From assembly GCA_964586605.1 (NCBI GenBank), contig CAZPGX010000002.1:11648-75647 (forward strand): a DNA stretch of 64,000 bases, in the 5' to 3' direction. The notes below the pieces were generated by a model, which worked only from the letters and a program-made list of their open reading frames with translations, made no database searches and was not told the origin of the DNA. The translations under genes and the position numbers were made by a program. Shown here one piece after another: positions 4,998-40,494 of the stretch (position 1 is the first letter of the stretch; each line of letters starts with the position of its first letter). This stretch comes from an uncultured Planctomycetia bacterium (GTDB taxonomy: Bacteria > Omnitrophota > Gorgyraeia > JAFGHF01).

Positions 4998-5444
4998 CTA
5001 TCTAAGGCCTTTGAGGGTTTTCATGAATTGGCCGACGTCGCGGAATTGGCGGTAGACAGAGGCAAAGCGCACGTAGGCAATCTCGTCCAAGTCCTGCAAT
5101 TTCTTCATTACCAATTCCCCAATCTCTTTAAACTTAACCTCTTTATCGTAATTCTTGCGTAAGGCAGATTCTATTTTATCGGTTAAATCTTCCAACTGTT
5201 CCATGCTAATTGGCCTTTTCTCACAGGCCTTGATTAACCCGGCAAGCAGCTTTTTGCGTTCAAACGGCTGGCGGCGTGAGTCCTTTTTGACCACCATTAG
5301 AGGCGCCTCTTCAATATGTTCATAGGTAGTGAAGCGCCGTTCGCATTTGAGGCATTCGCGGCGGCGGCGGATAGAATTGCCTTCGGCACTGAGACGTGAA
5401 TCTACTACCTTATCTTCCAGGTTTCCGCAATAAGGACATTTCAT
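4998..5444 (-). CDS. nrdR: Transcriptional repressor NrdR
   Basis: MKCPYCG...[12 protein letters not shown] zinc ribbon followed by an ATP-cone domain; 148 aa. Confidence 0.9.
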
Positions 5445-5902
5445 TTTAGTCTACGTACCTTAATGCCGGCTTCTTTCAAGAATTCGCCGGCCATTTCATC
5501 GGGGTAGCTGCCGGCGATAACCACCTCTTTAATCCCGGCATTGATAATCATCTTGGCACAGATAATACAGGGCTGGTGGGTAACATAGAGCATGCTCTCT
5601 CGCAAGCTAATCCCATAAAGCGCTGCCTGCAGGAGGGCATTTTGCTCGGCGTGTAAGCCCCGGCACAACTCATGCCTCTGCCCTGAAGGAACTTTAAGCT
5701 TTGTACGCAAGCAGCCAACCTCGGCGCAATGTTTTATGCCGCTTGGGGTGCCATTATAGCCGGTAGCTAGAATGCGCCTGTCCTTGACAATTAAGGCGCC
5801 TACTTTTCGACGCAGGCAGGTTGAGCGCTTGGAGACAATCGCGGCAATCTCCAGGAAGTACTCATCCCAGCCCGGACGGGCATCTTTTCTTTTAGCCTTC
5901 AT
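5441..5902 (-). CDS. Deoxycytidylate (dCMP) deaminase / ComEB family
   Basis: CMP/dCMP deaminase zinc motifs HAEQNAL and PCIICAKMI are present; 153 aa. Confidence 0.85.
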
Positions 5903-11347: not shown

Positions 11348-12835
11348 TCAGCGCAAAATCTTTACGGTTTTGGCCAGCTCATTAATAAATTTATTGGCCC
11401 ATCTATAGATGTCGTTTCGCACAATGATCTCGCGCAGCTGTTTCATTCTCCGGGCCTTTTCTTTTTGGGACATCTGCAGGACCTCTCTTAATTTATCGGC
11501 AAAGCCTTCGATATCGTAAGGATTCACCAGCACCGCCTCAGGCAGCTCGCGCGCGGCACCCGTAAAGCGGCTTAGAAGAAGTACTCCGTCCAATTTATTC
11601 TTGGCGCTGATATATTCTTTGGCCACAATATTCATCCCATCGTGCAGGGAACTTACTATACAGACATCTCCCAGGCGGTAAAAGGCCAGGGTCTCGGGGT
11701 GAGAAAGTGTCCGGCGCGTAAAGATTATTGGCGACCAGTTCTCGGTTGAATGCCTCCAGTTAATCTTCTCCACCAGTTCGTTTATCTTGTCGTTTAAATC
11801 CTTATATTGCCAAATATGCACCCGGGAAAGGGCGCCCATTTGAATAAAGACAAAGCGTTCTTTGTACTCCGGATATTTTTCCAGGAACCTGTCAATCGCC
11901 CTTAATCTCTCCGGGATACCTTTGGTATAATCAATGCGGTCTAACCCTAAGATAACCTTCACCTCATCGCTTAAAGAAAATTCTTCTCGAAAATGCGCCG
12001 CGCGGGCCTTGACTGCTTGAGAGCCAACGTTCTCGCTGATTTCTTCAAAATCCACGCTGATAGGAAAGGCCCGAATAACAGTCTCATGGCCGTGGCAAAT
12101 TATCGAAGTCTTCTCTCTGTCAATGCGGGCCTCAATCTCCTTTTCCACCGTGTTAATAAAGTTTGCGTCGTAATAGCGCAGGTGGAAGCCGAGCATATCA
12201 TTAGCCAAGAGACCTTCAAGGATCTCTTTCTTCATCGGGCAAATCCTAAAGGCCTCAGGATTGGGCCAGGGGATGTGCCAAAATTGAGCGCAGATTACGT
12301 CCTTTCTTTTTTCTTTGATATATTTGGCTACCAGGGCCAGATGATAATCCTGAATCCAGACGAAGGCCTTCTCTTTGCCGATTTCTTTCAGGATGGCATC
12401 GGCAAACATCTTATTTACCTTCTGATAATATTCCCAATCTGTCTGTCGAAAGATCGGCCGCGTATATACTACATGGCACAACGGCCAGAGGGCCTGGTTG
12501 GAAAAACCATAATAGTAGCCGTCGGCCTCATCCTTACTCAACCAGATTCTTTTTAAGGTATATTTCGGCTTCTCCGGAGGCAGTTGGACCTTACCCTCTG
12601 CATCGACTGCCCTTCTGTCGGCGCTGCCGCTACCATAGGCAACCCAGGTGCCGCCGCAGGCCTGTAAGATTGAATCTAAGGTATGCGCTGCTCCTCCTGC
12701 GGGCTTAAGATGGGCAACCTTGCCTTCTTTGAGGTAATGAATGTAGGGCTCGCGATTAGAGGCTACGACTACCCGGTAGCCTTCAAGCTTTTCGCGAATA
12801 GCCTTTTGTAGCTTTTGCTTGCTCGTAGCAGGCAT
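11348..12835 (-). CDS. otsA: Alpha,alpha-trehalose-phosphate synthase (GT20)
   Basis: OtsA motifs are present (VVASNREPY, LWPLCH, IQDYHL, HIPWP); 495 aa. Confidence 0.9.
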   Translation of the reverse strand: MPATSKQKLQKAIREKLEGYRVVVASNREPYIHYLKEGKVAHLKPAGGAAHTLDSILQACGGTWVAYGSGSADRRAVDAEGKVQLPPEKPKYTLKRIWLSKDEADGYYYGFSNQALWPLCHVVYTRPIFRQTDWEYYQKVNKMFADAILKEIGKEKAFVWIQDYHLALVAKYIKEKRKDVICAQFWHIPWPNPEAFRICPMKKEILEGLLANDMLGFHLRYYDANFINTVEKEIEARIDREKTSIICHGHETVIRAFPISVDFEEISENVGSQAVKARAAHFREEFSLSDEVKVILGLDRIDYTKGIPERLRAIDRFLEKYPEYKERFVFIQMGALSRVHIWQYKDLNDKINELVEKINWRHSTENWSPIIFTRRTLSHPETLAFYRLGDVCIVSSLHDGMNIVAKEYISAKNKLDGVLLLSRFTGAARELPEAVLVNPYDIEGFADKLREVLQMSQKEKARRMKQLREIIVRNDIYRWANKFINELAKTVKILR

Positions 12836-12836
12836 C

Positions 12837-13313
12837 TTATTTCCTCTTCTTTATTGAGGCAGCAAGTTTCTTTTTAAACTGCGCTAACTTTTCAGCCAGT
12901 AATTTATCTTCCAGGGCCAAAATCTGCGCTGCTAAAATAGCGGCATTTTTGGCGCCGGCTGAGCCGATAGCCATAGCGGCCACCGGTACACCCGAAGGCA
13001 TCTGTACCGTGGAAAATAGCGAATCGATTCCTTTTAAGGCCTTGGTCATCATCGGCACGCCGATAACCGGCAGGGTTGTATGCGCGGCAATTACGCCGGC
13101 CAGGTGTGCTGCCCCCCCGGCACCGGCAATAATTACTTTGATTGCCCTGTTTCTGGCCGAAACTGCATAGTTAATCGTAGCCAGCGGCGTGCGGTGCGCC
13201 GAAAGGACCCTTACCTCCGGTTTGATTCCGAAAGCGTTAAGCATCTTTTCTGCTTCAGACATAACGGGCATATCGGATTTGCTGCCCATTACAATTGCGA
13301 CTTGTGCTTTCAT
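12837..13313 (-). CDS. purE: N5-carboxyaminoimidazole ribonucleotide mutase
   Basis: VAIVMGSKSD...IAGAGGAAHLAG; 158 aa. Confidence 0.9.
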   Translation of the reverse strand: MKAQVAIVMGSKSDMPVMSEAEKMLNAFGIKPEVRVLSAHRTPLATINYAVSARNRAIKVIIAGAGGAAHLAGVIAAHTTLPVIGVPMMTKALKGIDSLFSTVQMPSGVPVAAMAIGSAGAKNAAILAAQILALEDKLLAEKLAQFKKKLAASIKKRK

Positions 13314-14581
13314 TTATTTAACGCCCTCCAGCCGATATCCCGGCGAAAATACATCTTTTCAAAATCTACTTTCTCAATTGCCTCATAGGCGCGAGATTGC
13401 GCCTGGGCGAGATCCTCTCCTAAGGAAACCACATTTAACACCCGCCCGCCTGATGTAAAGACCTTGCCGTTTTCCTGTTTCGTCCCGGCGTGGAAAACAA
13501 CTGTATCTTGAACTTTCTCTGCCCTCTGCAGGCCGGTAATCTCTTTTCCCTTTTCATAATTGCCCGGATAACCTCCGGAAGCCACCACTACGCAGATGCA
13601 GGGGCGCTTATCCCATTTTAAATTAACTTTGTCCAGATTGCCCTCAATCGTTGCCAGCATTACTTCTGTTAAATCGCTCCTTAGCCTGGGTAAAATCACC
13701 TGGGTCTCGGGGTCGCCAAAGCGCACATTGAACTCCAATATCTTCGGGCCGGAGGCAGTAACCATCAGGCCCGCATAAAGCACTCCCGTATATCTTTTGC
13801 CTTCGCTGTTTAATCCCAAAATCAACGGCTGCAAAATCTCTGAGTTAACTCTTTGCTCAAGCTGCGCAGTAACCACAGGGGCAGGTGAATAGGCACCCAT
13901 GCCTCCGGTATTGGGGCCGCGGTCGCCGTCATAAATCCTTTTATGGTCCTGCGAGGAAGCCAAAGAGACGATATTTTTCCCGTCAGAAAATACAAGGATC
14001 GAGGCCTCCTCGCCTTCTAAGCAATCTTCGATTACAACACGCGCTCCCGCATCGCCGAACTGCCTATCCACCATAGCCGTCTTTAAGGCCTGGTACGCTT
14101 CTTCAACATTACTGCAGACAAATACGCCTTTTCCTGCAGCTAGGCCATCGGCCTTGACTACACACGGCGTGCCTTTCTCGCGGATATAATCTGCGGCCTG
14201 TTCTTCATTCTCAAAGGTGCGGAATCCTGCCGTGGGCAGAGAAAAACGGGCCATGGTCTCTTTGGCAAAGACTTTACTTCCTTCTAAAAGAGCGAGTTTT
14301 TGTTGCGGGCCAAAAACTTTTAGGCCGCGCCTTTTGAACTCATCGACAATGCCGGAAACCAAAGGCATCTCCGGCCCGACAACCGTCAAATCAATCTTCC
14401 TCTGGCCGGCAAACTCGCCTAAGGCCTTGATATCGCCCGGGGCAATATGGATATTTTTGGCCAGGCTTTCGCTGCCTGCGTTTCCCGGAGCGCAGAAGAT
14501 TTCCTTAACCCTGTCTGACTGGGCAATCTTCCAGGCCAGGCAATGCTCCCGCCCGCCTGAGCCAATTACTAAAACCTTCAT
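13310..14581 (-). CDS. purD: Phosphoribosylamine--glycine ligase
   Basis: MKVLVIGSGGREH... ATP-grasp; 423 aa. Confidence 0.9.
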   Translation of the reverse strand: MKVLVIGSGGREHCLAWKIAQSDRVKEIFCAPGNAGSESLAKNIHIAPGDIKALGEFAGQRKIDLTVVGPEMPLVSGIVDEFKRRGLKVFGPQQKLALLEGSKVFAKETMARFSLPTAGFRTFENEEQAADYIREKGTPCVVKADGLAAGKGVFVCSNVEEAYQALKTAMVDRQFGDAGARVVIEDCLEGEEASILVFSDGKNIVSLASSQDHKRIYDGDRGPNTGGMGAYSPAPVVTAQLEQRVNSEILQPLILGLNSEGKRYTGVLYAGLMVTASGPKILEFNVRFGDPETQVILPRLRSDLTEVMLATIEGNLDKVNLKWDKRPCICVVVASGGYPGNYEKGKEITGLQRAEKVQDTVVFHAGTKQENGKVFTSGGRVLNVVSLGEDLAQAQSRAYEAIEKVDFEKMYFRRDIGWRALNK

Positions 14582-15597
14582 ACTATTACTTCTCTTTTGC
14601 CCTTAACTATCTCGCCGATTATCCAAGACCTTAGATTAAACTTTTGCCTAAGGAACCTGATAATTCTCCCGGATGTCTTTGGCGAAACTATCAAAACCAT
14701 GCCAATACCCATATTAAAGGTACGCAGCATCTGGCGCGCTTGGAGATGAGCCCGCGATTTAATCTCCTGGAATATATCGGGTATGGGCCAGGAGTTCTTG
14801 CAAAGTTCTACAGCTAATCCATCAGGAATAACCCGGGGGATTTTATCAATAAAGGCGCCGCCGGTGATGTGGGCGATGCCCTTTATAGTTGTAAGTTGTA
14901 AGTTGTAAGTTGTAAGTAAAGATAGGATCGGTTTTGTATAGATTCTTGTGGGAGTTAGAAACTCTTTAGCGCGCCTGTTTAACTCTTTTTTAGAAAATAG
15001 CTTTCTGACTAGAGAATAGCCGTTGGAGTGAAGGCCGGAAGAGGCCAGGCCGATTACCTGGTCGCCCAGTTTTATTCTGGAGCCGTCGATTATTTTATTC
15101 TTCTCCACTACCGCCACGCAAAATCCGGATAAGTCATACTCCCCTTCCTGATAAAAGTCGGGCATCTCGGCGGTTTCGCCGCCGATTAAGGCGCAATTTG
15201 CCTGACGGCATCCGGCGCTGATGCCTTTTACTACATCAACCAATGTCTTCTTCTTGAGTTTTCCCGTAGCAATATAATCCAAGAAAAAAAGCGGCTCAGC
15301 CCCGCAGCAGATACAATCATCCACATTCATCGCTACTAAATCAATACCCACTGTGTCGTGAATGCCGGCTAAAAAGGCCAGTTTGAGCTTTGTGCCTACG
15401 CCGTCGCTTGAGGAAACTAAGACCGGATTTTTGTATCTTTTAGACAACTCAAAAAATCCGCCAAATGAGCCAATGTTGCCCAACCAACCCGGCCGCTGCG
15501 TGGATTTAACCAGGCGTTTAATATCTTTAACAAAGCTTTCGGCCTTATCAATATCCACGCCTGCTTTTTTATATGTTATACTCTTTCTTTTCGCCAC
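14578..15597 (-). CDS. purM: Phosphoribosylformylglycinamidine cyclo-ligase (AIR synthase)
   Basis: PurM motifs are present, and the protein aligns with E. coli PurM (TRIY.K...IAH.TGG). It contains an in-frame heptanucleotide repeat insert. Confidence 0.9.
   Translation of the reverse strand: MAKRKSITYKKAGVDIDKAESFVKDIKRLVKSTQRPGWLGNIGSFGGFFELSKRYKNPVLVSSSDGVGTKLKLAFLAGIHDTVGIDLVAMNVDDCICCGAEPLFFLDYIATGKLKKKTLVDVVKGISAGCRQANCALIGGETAEMPDFYQEGEYDLSGFCVAVVEKNKIIDGSRIKLGDQVIGLASSGLHSNGYSLVRKLFSKKELNRRAKEFLTPTRIYTKPILSLLTTYNLQLTTIKGIAHITGGAFIDKIPRVIPDGLAVELCKNSWPIPDIFQEIKSRAHLQARQMLRTFNMGIGMVLIVSPKTSGRIIRFLRQKFNLRSWIIGEIVKGKREVIV
14887..14917. repeat. Heptanucleotide tandem repeat (AGTTGTA) with 4 perfect copies plus a partial copy, inside purM
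   Basis: It was read directly from the sequence. It encodes LTTYNLQLTT in a loop that is longer than in E. coli PurM. Confidence 0.9.
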
Positions 15598-16301
15598 TAA
15601 CCGAGAACCCTTTTTAATACCTCTTGATAGGCCCCTTCGATGTCGCCTAAATCGCGGCGGAATCTGTCTTTGTCCAACTTTTTATTTGTCTGTTTATCCC
15701 AGAGGCGGCAGGTATCCGGTGAGATTTCGTCGCCTAAAAGGATTTTTCCTTTATGGCGACCGAACTCCAGCTTAAAATCAACAAGCTTCAGGCCTAACCT
15801 GTCAAAAAATTCCTGCAAAATCTTATTAATCTTAAAAGAGTATTGGGCAATTTTATCCATCTCTCTTTTCGTGGCCAGATTCAGGGCATAGATATGGTAT
15901 TCGTTAATTAGAGGGTCATGCAGTGCGTCTTTTTTATAATGGTATTCCAGCACCGGTTCTTTTAGCGCTAGCCCCTCATCAAGTCCCAACTGTTTAGCCA
16001 TGCCTCCGGCAACGATATTGCGAATGGTTACCTCAACCAGGATAATCTCCAATTTCTTCACCAGCATCTCGCGCTCGCTTAGAAGCTTGACAAAATGCGT
16101 AGGCACCCCTTTAGATTCCAAAAGCTTAAAAATACGTACAGAAATTTTATTATTGCAGACGCCTTTGCCTACAATTGTGCCGCGCTTGGTGGCATCAAAG
16201 GCAGTGGCATCATCTTTAAAATCCTGAATTAAAAGGTCGGGGTCATCCGTCTCGTAAACCTTCTTGGCCTTGCCTTCATAGATAAGTTTTCCCTTCTTCA
16301 T
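15597..16301 (-). CDS. purC: SAICAR synthetase
   Basis: 234 aa with a PurC family sequence. Confidence 0.9.
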
Positions 16302-17590
16302 AGTCCTATTCTCCTGAAAATTTTATCTACATGACGCAGATATGACCTTTGGTCAAAGCAATCTTTGATTTCTTTCTTAGTTAGGTGCCTTGTAATCTGC
16401 GTATCGCCTGTTACTACATCCTTAAAATTTAACTCCGATTCCCAGACCCGGGATGCTGCTTGCTGCACTAAATCGTAACTTCTGGTTCGCGAAATTCCTT
16501 TTCCCATTAGGACCAGAAGCAGCCGTTGCGAGAAAATCAGGCCGCGAGTTTTATTTAGATTTTCTTTCATCTTCTCAGGGTAGACTAGCATATTGTCCAC
16601 AATCCAATTAACCTTGGTTAGCATATAATCAAGCAGGATTGTAGAGTCGGGAATGATTACCCTCTCTACGGAAGAGTGGCTGATATCCCGCTCATGCCAG
16701 AGGGCCACATTCTCCAGCGCCGCCTGGGCATTGCCTCTTAAAATGCGCGCCAGGCCACAGATTCTCTCGCAAAGGATGGGATTACGTTTATGGGGCATCG
16801 CGCTTGAGCCTTTTTGGGTTTTGGTAAAAGGCTCCATGGCCTCATTTACTTCACTGCGCTGTAGATGGCGGATTTCCTGAGCAAATCTTTCTAAGGAAGC
16901 GCCAAGCAGGGCAATCGTTACGATAAACTGGGCGTGGCGGTCGCGCGGAATTACCTGGGTGGTGATAGTTGCGGGTTTAAGATTTACCTTTTTGCAGACA
17001 TAGGCTTCCACAGAAGGGTCAAGATGGGCATATGTGCCTACTGCGCCGGAAATCTTGCCATAGCCCACGGCCTCTTGTGCCTCTTCCAGCCTTTTCAGGT
17101 TGCGTTTCATTTCATCGTAGAAAAGGGCAAATTTTAATCCGAAGGTAATCGGCTCGGCATGAATGCCGTGGGTGCGGCCCACGCAAATAGTCTGTTTATA
17201 TTCTCTGGCACGCCTGGCGCAGGAATGAAGCAGCTTTTTCACATCTTCAATCAAAATCCTGGCTGCCTCTTTTAGGCTCATCGCCAGGGTCGTATCTAAA
17301 AGATCGTTCGAAGTCAAACCAAGGTGGAAATAGCGCGAATCCTGCCCTAAATTTTCGCAAACCTGTGCAACGAAAGCAATTATGTCGTGACGGGTCTTGT
17401 TCTCGAGCTCCTCAATGCGCTCAATATTAATTTTGGCCTTCTGCTTGATATTGATTAAAGCCTGTTTGGGGATTTTGCCTTCGCGGTTCAGGGCCTCACA
17501 AACTAAAAGTTCCACCTCAAGCATCCGGCGAAACTTATTCTGATCCTCCCAAATCCGGCCCATCTTAGGAAGAGTGTATCTTTTTATCAT
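16298..17590 (-). CDS. purB: Adenylosuccinate lyase
   Basis: Fumarate-lyase signature [11 protein letters not shown]; 430 aa. Confidence 0.9.
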
Positions 17591-17644
17591 TTTATCCCCC
17601 TTTTAGGAACTTATATTATACCAGATATGGTAGTGTCCAGTCAA

Positions 17645-17690
17645 ACGAAAATAAAAAATCCCCACAGCTTGAAGCTATGGGGATTTCAAG
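17645..17690 (-). terminator. Rho-independent terminator directly downstream of the tRNA-fMet 3' end
   Basis: On the minus strand a 13-bp stem (ATCCCCA(C/T)AGCTT / AAGCTATGGGGAT) is followed by UUUUUUAUUUU. It begins immediately after the encoded CCA. Confidence 0.75.
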
Positions 17691-17734
17691 ATGGTAGCGG
17701 GGGGCCGATTTGAACGGCCGACCTTCAGGTTATG

Positions 17735-18378
17735 CCTACCACTACAGCTTTCGCTGCTTCCCCACCACAAAAGTTCCGTGGTGACAAATTTGTAGTCTGG
17801 ACTATACCTTAACCCCGAATCTTCGGGGTCCCTGCCATCTAGTCTCTACACCTTCCCTCGTTTTAGAGGGCTTGGCTCGGCATTGCCTTGAAATGACATC
17901 GAGGGTTTCACCGAATTTGACAGGTTACCCTTCAAGCGTTACCGCCTGAGGAGCCCATTGGACAATAAATCCCATCGCTCTCTGTAATCTGCTGACTTTG
18001 GTCTGCGTTGCCTTTTATCTGATTCTACAAATGTTATGCTACTTCCATAACGAGAAAAGACAGATATAGGCATTACATAGAACACATTTAAGTCAGCAAC
18101 ATAAGCAATTGCAAAATCAAAATCATTCGTATCGTAACGTTGCCTCAACATATGTCGGCGATTTGTCTTAGTTCGACGCACATCAACATTATAACATTTT
18201 GTCTTCGCGTTAAACCAAGCGCTCTTCACCTGAATACGTATGAGTTTTCTGTCAAGATCGACTGCCAAATCATACGCTAATCGATCTCCAACAGGCCGCA
18301 GCACCCTAAAGCCTCTTTTTAGAAGCTCGGTCGCGACAGCTGATTCTGCAATGTCGGCTTTGAGCTTTGTGTCCATTG
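17735..18378 (-). mobile_element. Group I (IC3-like) self-splicing intron, 644 nt, in the anticodon loop of tRNA-fMet (between U33 and C34, +/-1 nt)
   Basis: The 3' ~200 nt carry a recognisable group I core. The motifs GUCAAAUUCGGUGAAACC, GCAAUGCCGAGCCAAGC and GAAGGUGUAGAGACUAGAUGGCA are followed by a P8 hairpin (ACCCCGAAGAUUCGGGGU) and then by the S-like element AAGGUAUAGUCC. They closely match the Azoarcus pre-tRNA-Ile and cyanobacterial tRNA introns as recalled from memory. The ORF fills the 5' portion. Confidence 0.8.
17939..18376 (-). CDS. Intron-encoded putative homing endonuclease, PD-(D/E)XK family (I-Ssp6803I-like candidate), 145 aa
   Basis: The AUG lies at intron nt 3-5 (MDTKLKAD...). 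The sequence YDLAVDL...RIQVKS fits a D...(D/E)xK nuclease motif. The upstream 19 aa of the six-frame ORF (MIPFVEQRG...) are simply tRNA exon 1 translated. Confidence 0.65.
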   Translation of the reverse strand: MDTKLKADIAESAVATELLKRGFRVLRPVGDRLAYDLAVDLDRKLIRIQVKSAWFNAKTKCYNVDVRRTKTNRRHMLRQRYDTNDFDFAIAYVADLNVFYVMPISVFSRYGSSITFVESDKRQRRPKSADYRERWDLLSNGLLRR

Positions 18379-18465
18379 AGCCTGACGAGCTACCGGACTG
18401 CTCTACCCCGCGTTGTTCTACAAATGGTATCATATTTAACCGCTTAAGTCAACTTCTTTCTTATC

Positions 18466-18804
18466 TTACGATGTCTGCAAAAACCGCGCTAACTTCTCTT
18501 CAAAATCGGACGACTTGAAACCTGCCGGCCGGCCGGCCGGGCCGGATTTGGCTCTCTGGGAATCAGCCCTGAGGCCTTTCATGGTTAAATCAATCTTCCT
18601 GCCCGGACCCAGCTTAATTATTCTGGCCTTGACCCTATCGCCTACCTTAAGATGCTCATTAACATTCTTGACGTAGTCATCGGAGATCTGGGAAATATGG
18701 ATTAAACCGTTACCTCTGCCGTAAATCTTAACAAAGGCGCCAAAGTCCGTAATCTTGGCGACCTCTGCTTCTACCATTTCGCCTATTTTAAAAACCGTCG
18801 TCAT
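18466..18804 (-). CDS. S1 RNA-binding domain protein (YugI / general stress protein 13-like)
   Basis: S1 OB-fold (GEMVEAEVAKITDFGAFVKI...GLIHISQI) with a basic C-terminal tail. Confidence 0.75.
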   Translation of the reverse strand: MTTVFKIGEMVEAEVAKITDFGAFVKIYGRGNGLIHISQISDDYVKNVNEHLKVGDRVKARIIKLGPGRKIDLTMKGLRADSQRAKSGPAGRPAGFKSSDFEEKLARFLQTS

Positions 18805-18816
18805 AACCTGAAGAAT

Positions 18817-20396
<1,580 letters not shown>

Positions 20397-30361: not shown

Positions 30362-30512
30362 TCGAGAATATTTACCCACCGAAGCTTTAGCGAAGGTGGG
30401 CTTCTCAGGATAGGCAATCGTCCGGGCTCCGCTGCATTTCGAAATGCAGCGATTACCGTTGCGGGGCAGCGGAAGGAATCACACCTTCACTTCCTTTGCC
30501 TATCCGGAAAAC
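30362..30512 (-). promoter_or_regulatory. Cobalamin (B12) riboswitch in the 5' leader of btuB
   Basis: The minus-strand RNA contains GGAAGUGAAGGUGUGAUUCCUUCCGCUGCCCCGCAACGGUAA, which has the GGUG...AAUCC...CCCGC-ACUG/ACGG (B12-box-like) pattern, together with a structured hairpin. Confidence 0.65.
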
Positions 30513-30522
30513 AAACTATAAG

Positions 30523-40170: not shown

Positions 40171-40440
40171 GTCCCGAATGTAGAAACTTCATTGAAGTTC
40201 TACCTTCGGGACTGCACCCTGATTTATCTTGGCCCCTAAATAAAAACTTTTAAGTTCTATCCTGCGTAGAACAAAAAGTTTCCTCGCTTCGTTAGGCAGG
40301 TCTTCTGACTTACGGCTTCCTACTCACCAGGCCTTCCCACCCCGAGACTTCGGGACAGTGGCTAATGCTGGTTTTCGCTACCGATTACAGCGGCGGGACC
40401 GCGCTCGAGTTTCACGAGCTTCCCTACACCTAACTTGCAA
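40171..40440 (-). promoter_or_regulatory. Cobalamin riboswitch (aptamer about 40294..40437) plus an intrinsic-terminator expression platform (hairpin 40171..40212 followed by a U-run), upstream of cobC
   Basis: The minus-strand RNA reads GGUGUAGGGAAGC...GUGAAA...GCGCGGUCCCGCCGCUGUAAUCGG...GCCACUG...GGGAAGGCC...GCCGUAAGUCAGAAGACCUGCC. This includes the canonical B12 box GCCACUG and the conserved flanking elements. Confidence 0.85.
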
Positions 40441-40494
40441 TCTATTCAATTGTAATGCTACCATAAACTAAATATCTATCTTTGTCAAGAAAAA

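Follow-up and report, generated by a model that had tools for sequence, protein, structure and literature searches.

Is the initiator tRNA gene in the 64-kb stretch of genome analyzed here (contig CAZPGX010000002.1, hereafter the window; its relatives are numbered L004–L088), which is cut in two by a group I intron with an open reading frame (ORF), a working gene that houses a mobile element, the residence of an intron that no longer moves, or a dead copy? The first of these answers is very probably correct: In an Omnitrophota bacterium, the initiator tRNA gene is interrupted between U33 and C34 by an IC3-like group I intron that would be functional and mobile and that carries, in the loop of its helix P1, a gene for a predicted PD-(D/E)XK homing endonuclease of the I-Ssp6803I family; the splicing of the intron and the DNA cleavage by its product are what we infer from the comparisons below. 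The parts of the split gene are the following.

18379..18412, minus strand: tRNA-fMet exon 1, which comprises positions 1–33 plus 17a (34 nt), has U33 as its last base and agrees in every base with the 5' half of the gene that is uninterrupted in relative L084
17735..18378, minus strand: group I intron, 644 nt, starting with CAAUGG and ending with ...GGUAGG (terminal G at 17735), recognized by ARAGORN and Rfam and absent from L084
17939..18376, minus strand: predicted homing endonuclease ORF, 438 nt (145 aa plus stop), in the P1 loop
17692..17734, minus strand: tRNA-fMet exon 2, 43 nt, with the anticodon CAU at its start and an encoded CCA at its end

In default mode, ARAGORN missed the split gene and called only tRNA-Glu, tRNA-Leu and tRNA-Gln in the window; no other tRNA-Met was found by it within the 64 kb. 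In intron mode, the program reported tRNA-Met(CAT), interrupted after nucleotide 34 by an intron of 644 nt; given the joined exons, it called a 77-nt tRNA-Met. This agrees exactly with the exons (18412..18379 and 17734..17692) and the 644-nt intron, following a U and ending in G, that had been proposed by an earlier interpretation made from the letters alone (the sequence-only reading). The cloverleaf displays the features of an initiator tRNA-fMet: a CAU anticodon, no Watson-Crick pair 1:72 (C1 is unpaired opposite U72) and the A11:U24 pair. The anticodon stem (U27-A43, C28-G42, A29-U41, G30-C40, G31-C39) contains two of the three consecutive G:C pairs expected at 29:41, 30:40 and 31:39, with A29:U41 in place of the remaining one. 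Of the initiator marks listed in the sequence-only reading, C1 opposite U72 and A11:U24 were recovered and the G-C-rich anticodon stem only to this extent; its description of the tRNA as almost identical to that of Escherichia coli was too strong, the identity to the E. coli tRNA-Met genes (about four per genome) being 88.3% over 77 nt.

An empty site fixed the intron boundaries independently of any model. When metagenomes were scanned for the junction without intron, one contig was obtained, L084 (Ga0114923_10008187, 6,979 nt), which is collinear with window positions 12417..19924 at 88–91% nucleotide identity and whose alignment with the window breaks exactly at 17734|18377. Its uninterrupted 77-nt tRNA (L084:5413-5489; junction …GTAGCTCGTCAGGCT|CATAACCTGAAGGTC…) equals the joined window exons at 77 of 77 positions and lies in the same promoter and terminator context, which shows that the ligated sequence is a functional gene product in a close relative. 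A two-base ambiguity (CA) of the boundary derived from L084 was settled by the U/G splice rule, according to which the intron is preceded by U and has G as its last base. The resolved homologue loci all read ...GGCU|CA...G|CAUAACC, i.e. the same U33|C34 site, with the terminal G in every one. Since the identical locus was found in independent assemblies (two samples from JGI and one Logan run), and since the intron-less allele of the close relative breaks exactly at the junction, the arrangement is not due to chance. The organism is present in the JGI samples 3300031650 and 3300031624 and in SRR9707468. The comparison shows in addition that presence and absence of the intron are polymorphic at a divergence of about 0.40 synonymous substitutions per site (dS) in the adjacent purB gene.

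The assignment to group I was supported by a full-length match to Rfam RF00028 (17977..17782, minus strand; model positions 1–253) with 75.3 bits, above the gathering score of 50, and E = 2.6e-17, as the sequence-only reading had anticipated; the core sequence blocks quoted in that reading were all found, and its proposal of an IC3-like core fits the identity of 67–70%, computed over 154–261 aligned columns, that the core shows to IC3 introns of the same position (classification of PMC13011429). By this identity and by the core blocks shared with the Azoarcus intron, the subgroup is probably IC3-like. The elements of the ribozyme are listed below.

18373..18382, minus strand: 5' strand of P1, formed by exon nucleotides G30-G31-C32-U33 and intron nucleotides C1–G6; pairs with the guide at 17961..17952
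17952..17961, minus strand: internal guide sequence CCAAUGGGCU, 3' strand of P1 and P10 partner of C34-A35-U36, inside the 3' end of the ORF
17932..17949, minus strand: P2 hairpin UCAGGCG-GUAA-CGCUUGA, compensatory changes in 7 of 7 pairs, 97% of cells paired
17738..17924, minus strand: catalytic core (Rfam alignment, hand-drawn structure and covariation)
17924..17919 / 17836..17831, minus strand: P3, part of the core
17915..17909 / 17882..17876, minus strand: P4, part of the core, which also contains P5 and P6/P6a
17844..17840 / 17804..17800, minus strand: P7, part of the core
17828..17813, minus strand: P8, part of the core
17796..17792 / 17742..17738, minus strand: P9, part of the core, with P9a and a GAAA-capped P9b

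For the covariation analysis, the ribozyme parts of 53 non-identical homologous introns were aligned and a structure was drawn by hand (P2, P3, P4, P5, P6/6a, the pseudoknot P7, P8, P9 and P9b). Standard pairs occupied 94.4% of the cells, versus 27–41% when the 3' partners were slid by 1–3 columns; compensatory changes on both sides occurred in 34 of 52 pairs (24.2 ± 1.6 after shuffling), and the covariation score was 0.428 for the structure as drawn versus at most 0.09 for the slid ones. Every pair covaries in P2, P6a and P8, and four pairs each do so in P3, P9 and P9b; compensatory changes were present in 4 of 6 pairs of P3 and in 1 of 5 pairs of P7, the other four of the latter being invariant. 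An initial drawing of P9 as ACUACA/UGUAGU overlapped P9b and was given up for ACUAC/GUGGU on the basis of compensatory changes. As judged by this covariation, the ribozyme fold is under selection.

Within the guide, GGG is invariant and the C nearly invariant among the 53 introns. Its segment GGGC (17956..17953) forms the pairs U33·G, C32-G, G31-C and C+1-G in 53 of 53 cases, so that the U·G wobble at the splice site looked for by the sequence-only reading is present in the window and in every homologue. With regard to P10, a guide G can pair with C34 in all 53 introns and the next two positions can pair in 34 and 43 of them, respectively. In the window, P1 extends into the intron (A2-U, A3×A, U4-A, G5-C, G6-C); the loop closed by this helix thus holds the endonuclease ORF. 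Coding sequence and ribozyme are interlocked at both ends: The ATG (18376..18374) corresponds to intron nucleotides 3–5, the last codons also serve as guide sequence and as the 5' half of P2, and the stop codon UAA (17941..17939) is situated in the GUAA loop of P2.

The sequence-only reading had recognized that the intron contains an ORF and had left its family affiliation unnoticed. The protein matches Pfam PF11645 (PDDEXK_5) with E = 6.4e-45 and 153 bits (cut-off 26.1) over profile positions 1–137 of 138, and PDB entry 2OST, the structure of I-Ssp6803I, with E = 2.3e-47 and 55% identity. In PMC3384342, I-Ssp6803I is characterized as the tetrameric PD-(D/E)XK homing endonuclease of a cyanobacterium, with its structure under 2OST (Zhao et al. 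2007, cited there). The residues D8, D36, Q49 and K51 (window numbering; motif Q49-V-K51) are invariant in nine aligned sequences including I-Ssp6803I and, from the PD-(D/E)XK pattern, probably constitute the catalytic motif. Compared with ten intron-borne relatives, the ratio of nonsynonymous to synonymous substitution rates (dN/dS) was 0.06–0.13, which points to strong purifying selection. By homology, the ORF product is a predicted homing endonuclease of the I-Ssp6803I family, which would make the window element the direct counterpart of the intron in Synechocystis.

The split gene is flanked by two predicted signals:

18424..18452, minus strand: promoter-like site (TTGACT, 17-nt spacer, TACCAT), 12 nt upstream of tRNA position 1, from a consensus scan only
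17655..17687, minus strand: intrinsic-terminator-like hairpin with T run, 4 nt past the CCA end, conserved in L084

At the position of the window's TACCAT, the intron-less relative reads TATAAT. Based on these predictions, the split tRNA gene may represent its own transcription unit.

The following course of events is proposed on the basis of the established group I splicing pathway (PMC3984707). In the precursor, the guide segment GGGC would pair with exon nucleotides G31-C32-U33 and intron nucleotide C+1 to give P1 with its U33·G wobble; after folding of the P3–P9 core, exogenous guanosine would attack behind U33, the terminal G (17735) would then enter the G site while the guide pairs with C34-A35-U36 as P10, and exon ligation would release the 77-nt tRNA-fMet with its encoded CCA. 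By homology with I-Ssp6803I, the 145-aa protein would cut uninterrupted tRNA-fMet genes within the anticodon stem-loop, and repair from an intron-bearing copy would spread the intron. As to synthesis of the protein, nothing resembles a Shine-Dalgarno sequence except the AGG in the anticodon stem, which precedes the AUG by 4 nt. Translation might, speculatively, proceed on the precursor via this AGG of exon 1 or else on the excised intron as a nearly leaderless mRNA with the AUG 3 nt from its 5' end.

Several observations weigh against a functional and mobile intron. The exon part of P1 comprises only 3–4 bp and the intron extension contains an A×A mismatch. The endonuclease may be expressed at a very low level, because its start codon and the AGG are sequestered in P1 and the anticodon stem. 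The difference between the window and L084 could reflect a precise loss of the intron, not a gain. The dS comparison given below is drawn from a gene of 145 codons and a nearly saturated purB and suggests lateral movement without proving it. Finally, where bacterial initiators typically have the first of three G:C pairs, the tRNA has A29:U41. The pair is a lineage trait and not damage, because it is found in many Omnitrophota homologues (exons of L004–L083; anticodon stems UCAGG/CCUGA, CAAGG/CCUUG and UUAGG/CCUAA) and in the intron-less L084 allele (5413-5489). The rule of three G:C pairs has known variants in some bacteria.

The better of the two alternatives assumes a resident, vertically inherited intron that splices but does not move, the endonuclease being kept for a maturase-like or DNA-repair role and L084 being a rare case of precise loss. 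It would account for the sequestered translation start, for the occurrence of the same intron and endonuclease at the syntenic site in several Omnitrophota species and for the great abundance of the element in this phylum. It is nevertheless improbable: Constraint across the whole protein at the above dN/dS together with the invariant nuclease motif fits a working nuclease, a relative that is only about 10% divergent has no intron, and dS of the endonuclease stays consistently below that of the neighboring purB, which argues for exchange between lineages. We know of no maturase activity in this endonuclease family, which also counts against such a role. That the split gene is a dead copy whose intron no longer splices, the cell using another, uninterrupted tRNA-fMet elsewhere, is scarcely credible: Only 64 kb of the genome are at hand and no other tRNA-Met lies within them, but the exons have stayed identical to the uninterrupted gene of the relative despite about 10% divergence of the flanks, no helix is broken and the helices covary throughout the family, the promoter- and terminator-like sites are retained, and the ORF has stayed open under purifying selection.

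In favor of the mobile intron, the divergence values of the endonuclease and purB were compared for the same genome pairs. Endonuclease dS amounted to 0.77 between the window and L004 (purB 1.87), 0.83 for L014 (purB 2.37), and 0.79 and 0.86 for L005 and L029, respectively (purB saturated in both); overall, it ranged from 0.77 to 2.1, below that of the adjacent purB (about 1.9 to saturated). Since the endonuclease gene is short and purB near saturation, lateral movement is only suggested by these data. The intron-borne endonuclease of L014 (L014:1501-1935), 77% identical to the window protein, contains an in-frame stop and may be a decaying copy. The dS pattern and this stop would fit exchange among Omnitrophota lineages in the usual homing cycle, in which invasion is followed by decay, loss and re-invasion; the evidence is suggestive only. 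The element and the intron-less allele of the close relative provide ready material for testing homing.

The host is, as shown by gene order, an Omnitrophota bacterium and not a cyanobacterium, in line with the statement of the sequence-only reading that the surrounding genes do not look cyanobacterial. An exact-sequence look-up with the endonuclease and five proteins encoded nearby gave neither names nor accessions. An S1-domain gene, the split tRNA-fMet with endonuclease, and purB follow each other in several Omnitrophota genomes, among them the 1.55-Mb chromosome CP070837.1 (L004). Between the window and the syntenic Omnitrophota genomes, PurB is 77–81% and the S1 protein 62–65% identical; the nearest homologues of the endonuclease (74–85% identical) among the 120 matches listed come overwhelmingly from metagenome-assembled genomes (MAGs) of Candidatus Omnitrophota. 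An Omnitrophota-type locus was also observed in third-party-assembled MAGs labeled as uncultured Planctomycetia or Planctomycetales (L005, L008, L011, L013, L018, L022, L036, L048, L049, L053, L056, L057 and L062), among which L005 has the same synteny and a PurB 81% identical to that of the window; these labels may be imprecise.

Which parts of this system are known already? The group I intron in tRNA-fMet of Synechocystis sp. PCC 6803 encodes I-Ssp6803I (Bonocora and Shub 2001, cited in PMC3984707), and the endonuclease-bearing form was thought to be essentially cyanobacterial (PMC3384342). The window element shares with it the initiator tRNA, the site 33/34 (PMC13011429), the endonuclease family PF11645 and the location of the gene within the intron; it differs in its host, which belongs to Omnitrophota and not to Cyanobacteriota, and in the presumed target, the anticodon stem having A29:U41 and not G29:C41. 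Position 33/34 of tRNA-fMet is a well-characterized insertion site: A survey of 4,934 complete genomes (mSystems 2026; PMC13011429) documented IC3 introns without ORF at this position in Cyanobacteriota, Bacteroidota, Desulfobacterota and Nitrospirota and in a single Omnitrophota genome (GCF_004102945.1; intron of 252 nt), reported PF11645 genes in fMet introns of two cyanobacteria only and noted that draft genomes might reveal more. These ORF-less introns resemble the window intron in site, splice-site rules, homologous core and the guide motif AUGGGY just upstream of P2, but measure 245–303 nt, whereas in the window intron the P1 loop accommodates an endonuclease gene of 438 nt. Some Omnitrophota homologues carry the NCBI name "group I intron-associated PD-(D/E)XK endonuclease"; in the literature searched, no main-text discussion of the element in Omnitrophota was found, and the group I intron database paper (PMC11835236) contains nothing on PF11645 or fMet. 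The novelty implied by the sequence-only reading was accordingly overstated, given the non-cyanobacterial ORF-less introns at fMet 33/34, Omnitrophota included, and the already named endonuclease homologues. The element type (first described in Synechocystis), the site and ORF-less introns in Omnitrophota are known, and the novelty is modest; new are the frequent occurrence of the endonuclease-bearing form outside the cyanobacteria and the alternation of intron-encoded and free-standing endonucleases among its relatives. The Azoarcus intron has core blocks nearly identical to those of the window intron (GUCAAAUUCGG, CCGAGCCAAGC and GAAGGUGUAGAGACUAGA), both being small introns of tRNA anticodon loops; it differs in the tRNA concerned, the insertion after the CAU anticodon, the lack of an ORF and a differently elaborated P9.

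In a scan with one genome per species, relatives of the endonuclease were encoded by at least 293 species-level genomes from many phyla, and hundreds of Omnitrophota homologues exist in public databases. The locus layouts were derived from the best 80 loci, in most of which the endonuclease lies within or beside an intron-split tRNA-fMet. The window layout with the ORF in the P1 loop accounts for about 51 of the 80; where the boundaries were resolved (39 loci), the introns span 617–683 nt. Regular expressions left about 20 of the 80 unresolved, 12 of these being counted as window-type from ARAGORN spans; L038, L045, L058 and L082 were left unclassified, and L054 and L074 gave no parsed endonuclease ORF.

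A second layout was present in at least 20 loci: an ORF-less intron of 202–325 nt at the same site of tRNA-fMet, accompanied by a free-standing gene for a homologous endonuclease (L031, L044, L048, L056, L057, L063, L065, L067, L072–L074, L076–L081 and L083; e.g. L076:1039-1983 and L073:1087-1959). The sources are Omnitrophota, cyanobacterial MAGs, a Bacteroidia MAG and the cultured Arcicella gelida and A. rosea. Of 12 loci measured, 11 have the free-standing gene 50–323 nt behind exon 2, whereas in L031 the distance downstream is 1.1 kb; a terminator-like hairpin often precedes the gene. In L074, the split tRNA is on the opposite strand. No second, degenerate intron was detected around the free-standing genes, each such locus containing one group I core, and in a rough neighbor-joining tree of the endonucleases free-standing and intron-internal copies were interspersed. 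The tail of the L031 protein (…WDLLSD) matches the intron-borne copies up to the position of the guide sequence; because this intron-type tail is kept to the start of the guide, the copy seemingly derives from an intron. This locus (L031:503-1950) has two further ORFs, one helix-turn-helix (68 aa) and one HNH-like (233 aa), between its split tRNA-fMet and the endonuclease gene. Collaborative homing by free-standing endonucleases has been described for mobE / I-TevIII of phage T4 (PMC2790892) and for the cyanophage enzyme F-CphI at psbA (PMC6083498). The relatives that pair an ORF-less intron with a free-standing endonuclease beside the interrupted gene (L031, L044, L067, L073, L076 and others) resemble these cases, which differ in concerning phage protein-coding genes and other nuclease families; in the window, the endonuclease gene is inside the intron.

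Free-standing homologues with 54–58% identity are also found on IMG/VR viral contigs of up to 178 kb (L085:1998-2514, L086:2001-2499, L087:2001-2500 and L088:2001-2495), where the stop codon of the endonuclease gene adjoins, or overlaps with, an uninterrupted tRNA-Met(CAT) of initiator-like type at its 5' end. The anticodon stems in L087 and L088 are of the type GACGC/GCGUU, compared with the usual GGGCU…AACCC. One possibility is that a phage endonuclease is paired here with a resistant tRNA-fMet. Taken together, it is conceivable, if rather doubtful, that the endonuclease has switched several times between the P1 loop and a free-standing position beside a tRNA-fMet with ORF-less intron, that phage-like free-standing copies abut an uninterrupted initiator tRNA, and that the element moves between Omnitrophota lineages, perhaps in their sole initiator gene; the loci would then form a natural series of the formation and break-up of mobile introns in cellular genomes.

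Should the cell possess no initiator tRNA gene besides the interrupted one, every start of translation would depend on a ribozyme, i.e. on GTP-dependent self-splicing. A second tRNA-Met located just downstream in L047 and L069 was considered as a spare initiator and rejected, as it has a paired 1:72 and is of the elongator or Ile2 type. Omnitrophota genomes can seem to lack an initiator tRNA because tRNA finders miss or mislabel the split gene: ARAGORN in default mode does not detect it (window 17939-18433; L004–L083), and the intron mode often slides the boundary, giving tRNA-Leu(CAA), Ser, Thr or Pro. Given that the intron begins with CAA or CAG, we took these labels, attached to many homologues, for slips of the boundary and discarded them; by the U|...G rule, tRNA-fMet(CAU) resulted in every resolved case.

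The ORF is subject to similar errors. Gene callers extend it upstream through exon 1: The database version (P0001) has 164 aa instead of 145, starting at an upstream ATG (18433) and running through the promoter region and exon 1. The homologues vary in length from 143 to 213 aa with the start MDTKLK common to all, and the 164-aa form is a gene-calling artifact. Other ORFs run downstream through the ribozyme core, their tails (…NLSNSVEP…GNTEPS) being translated ribozyme sequence.

Apart from the split tRNA gene, two matches to the cobalamin riboswitch (RF00174) were noted on the minus strand of the window, a marginal one at 30396-30518 (35.7 bits versus a gathering score of 31.5) and a strong one at 40278-40448 (95 bits).

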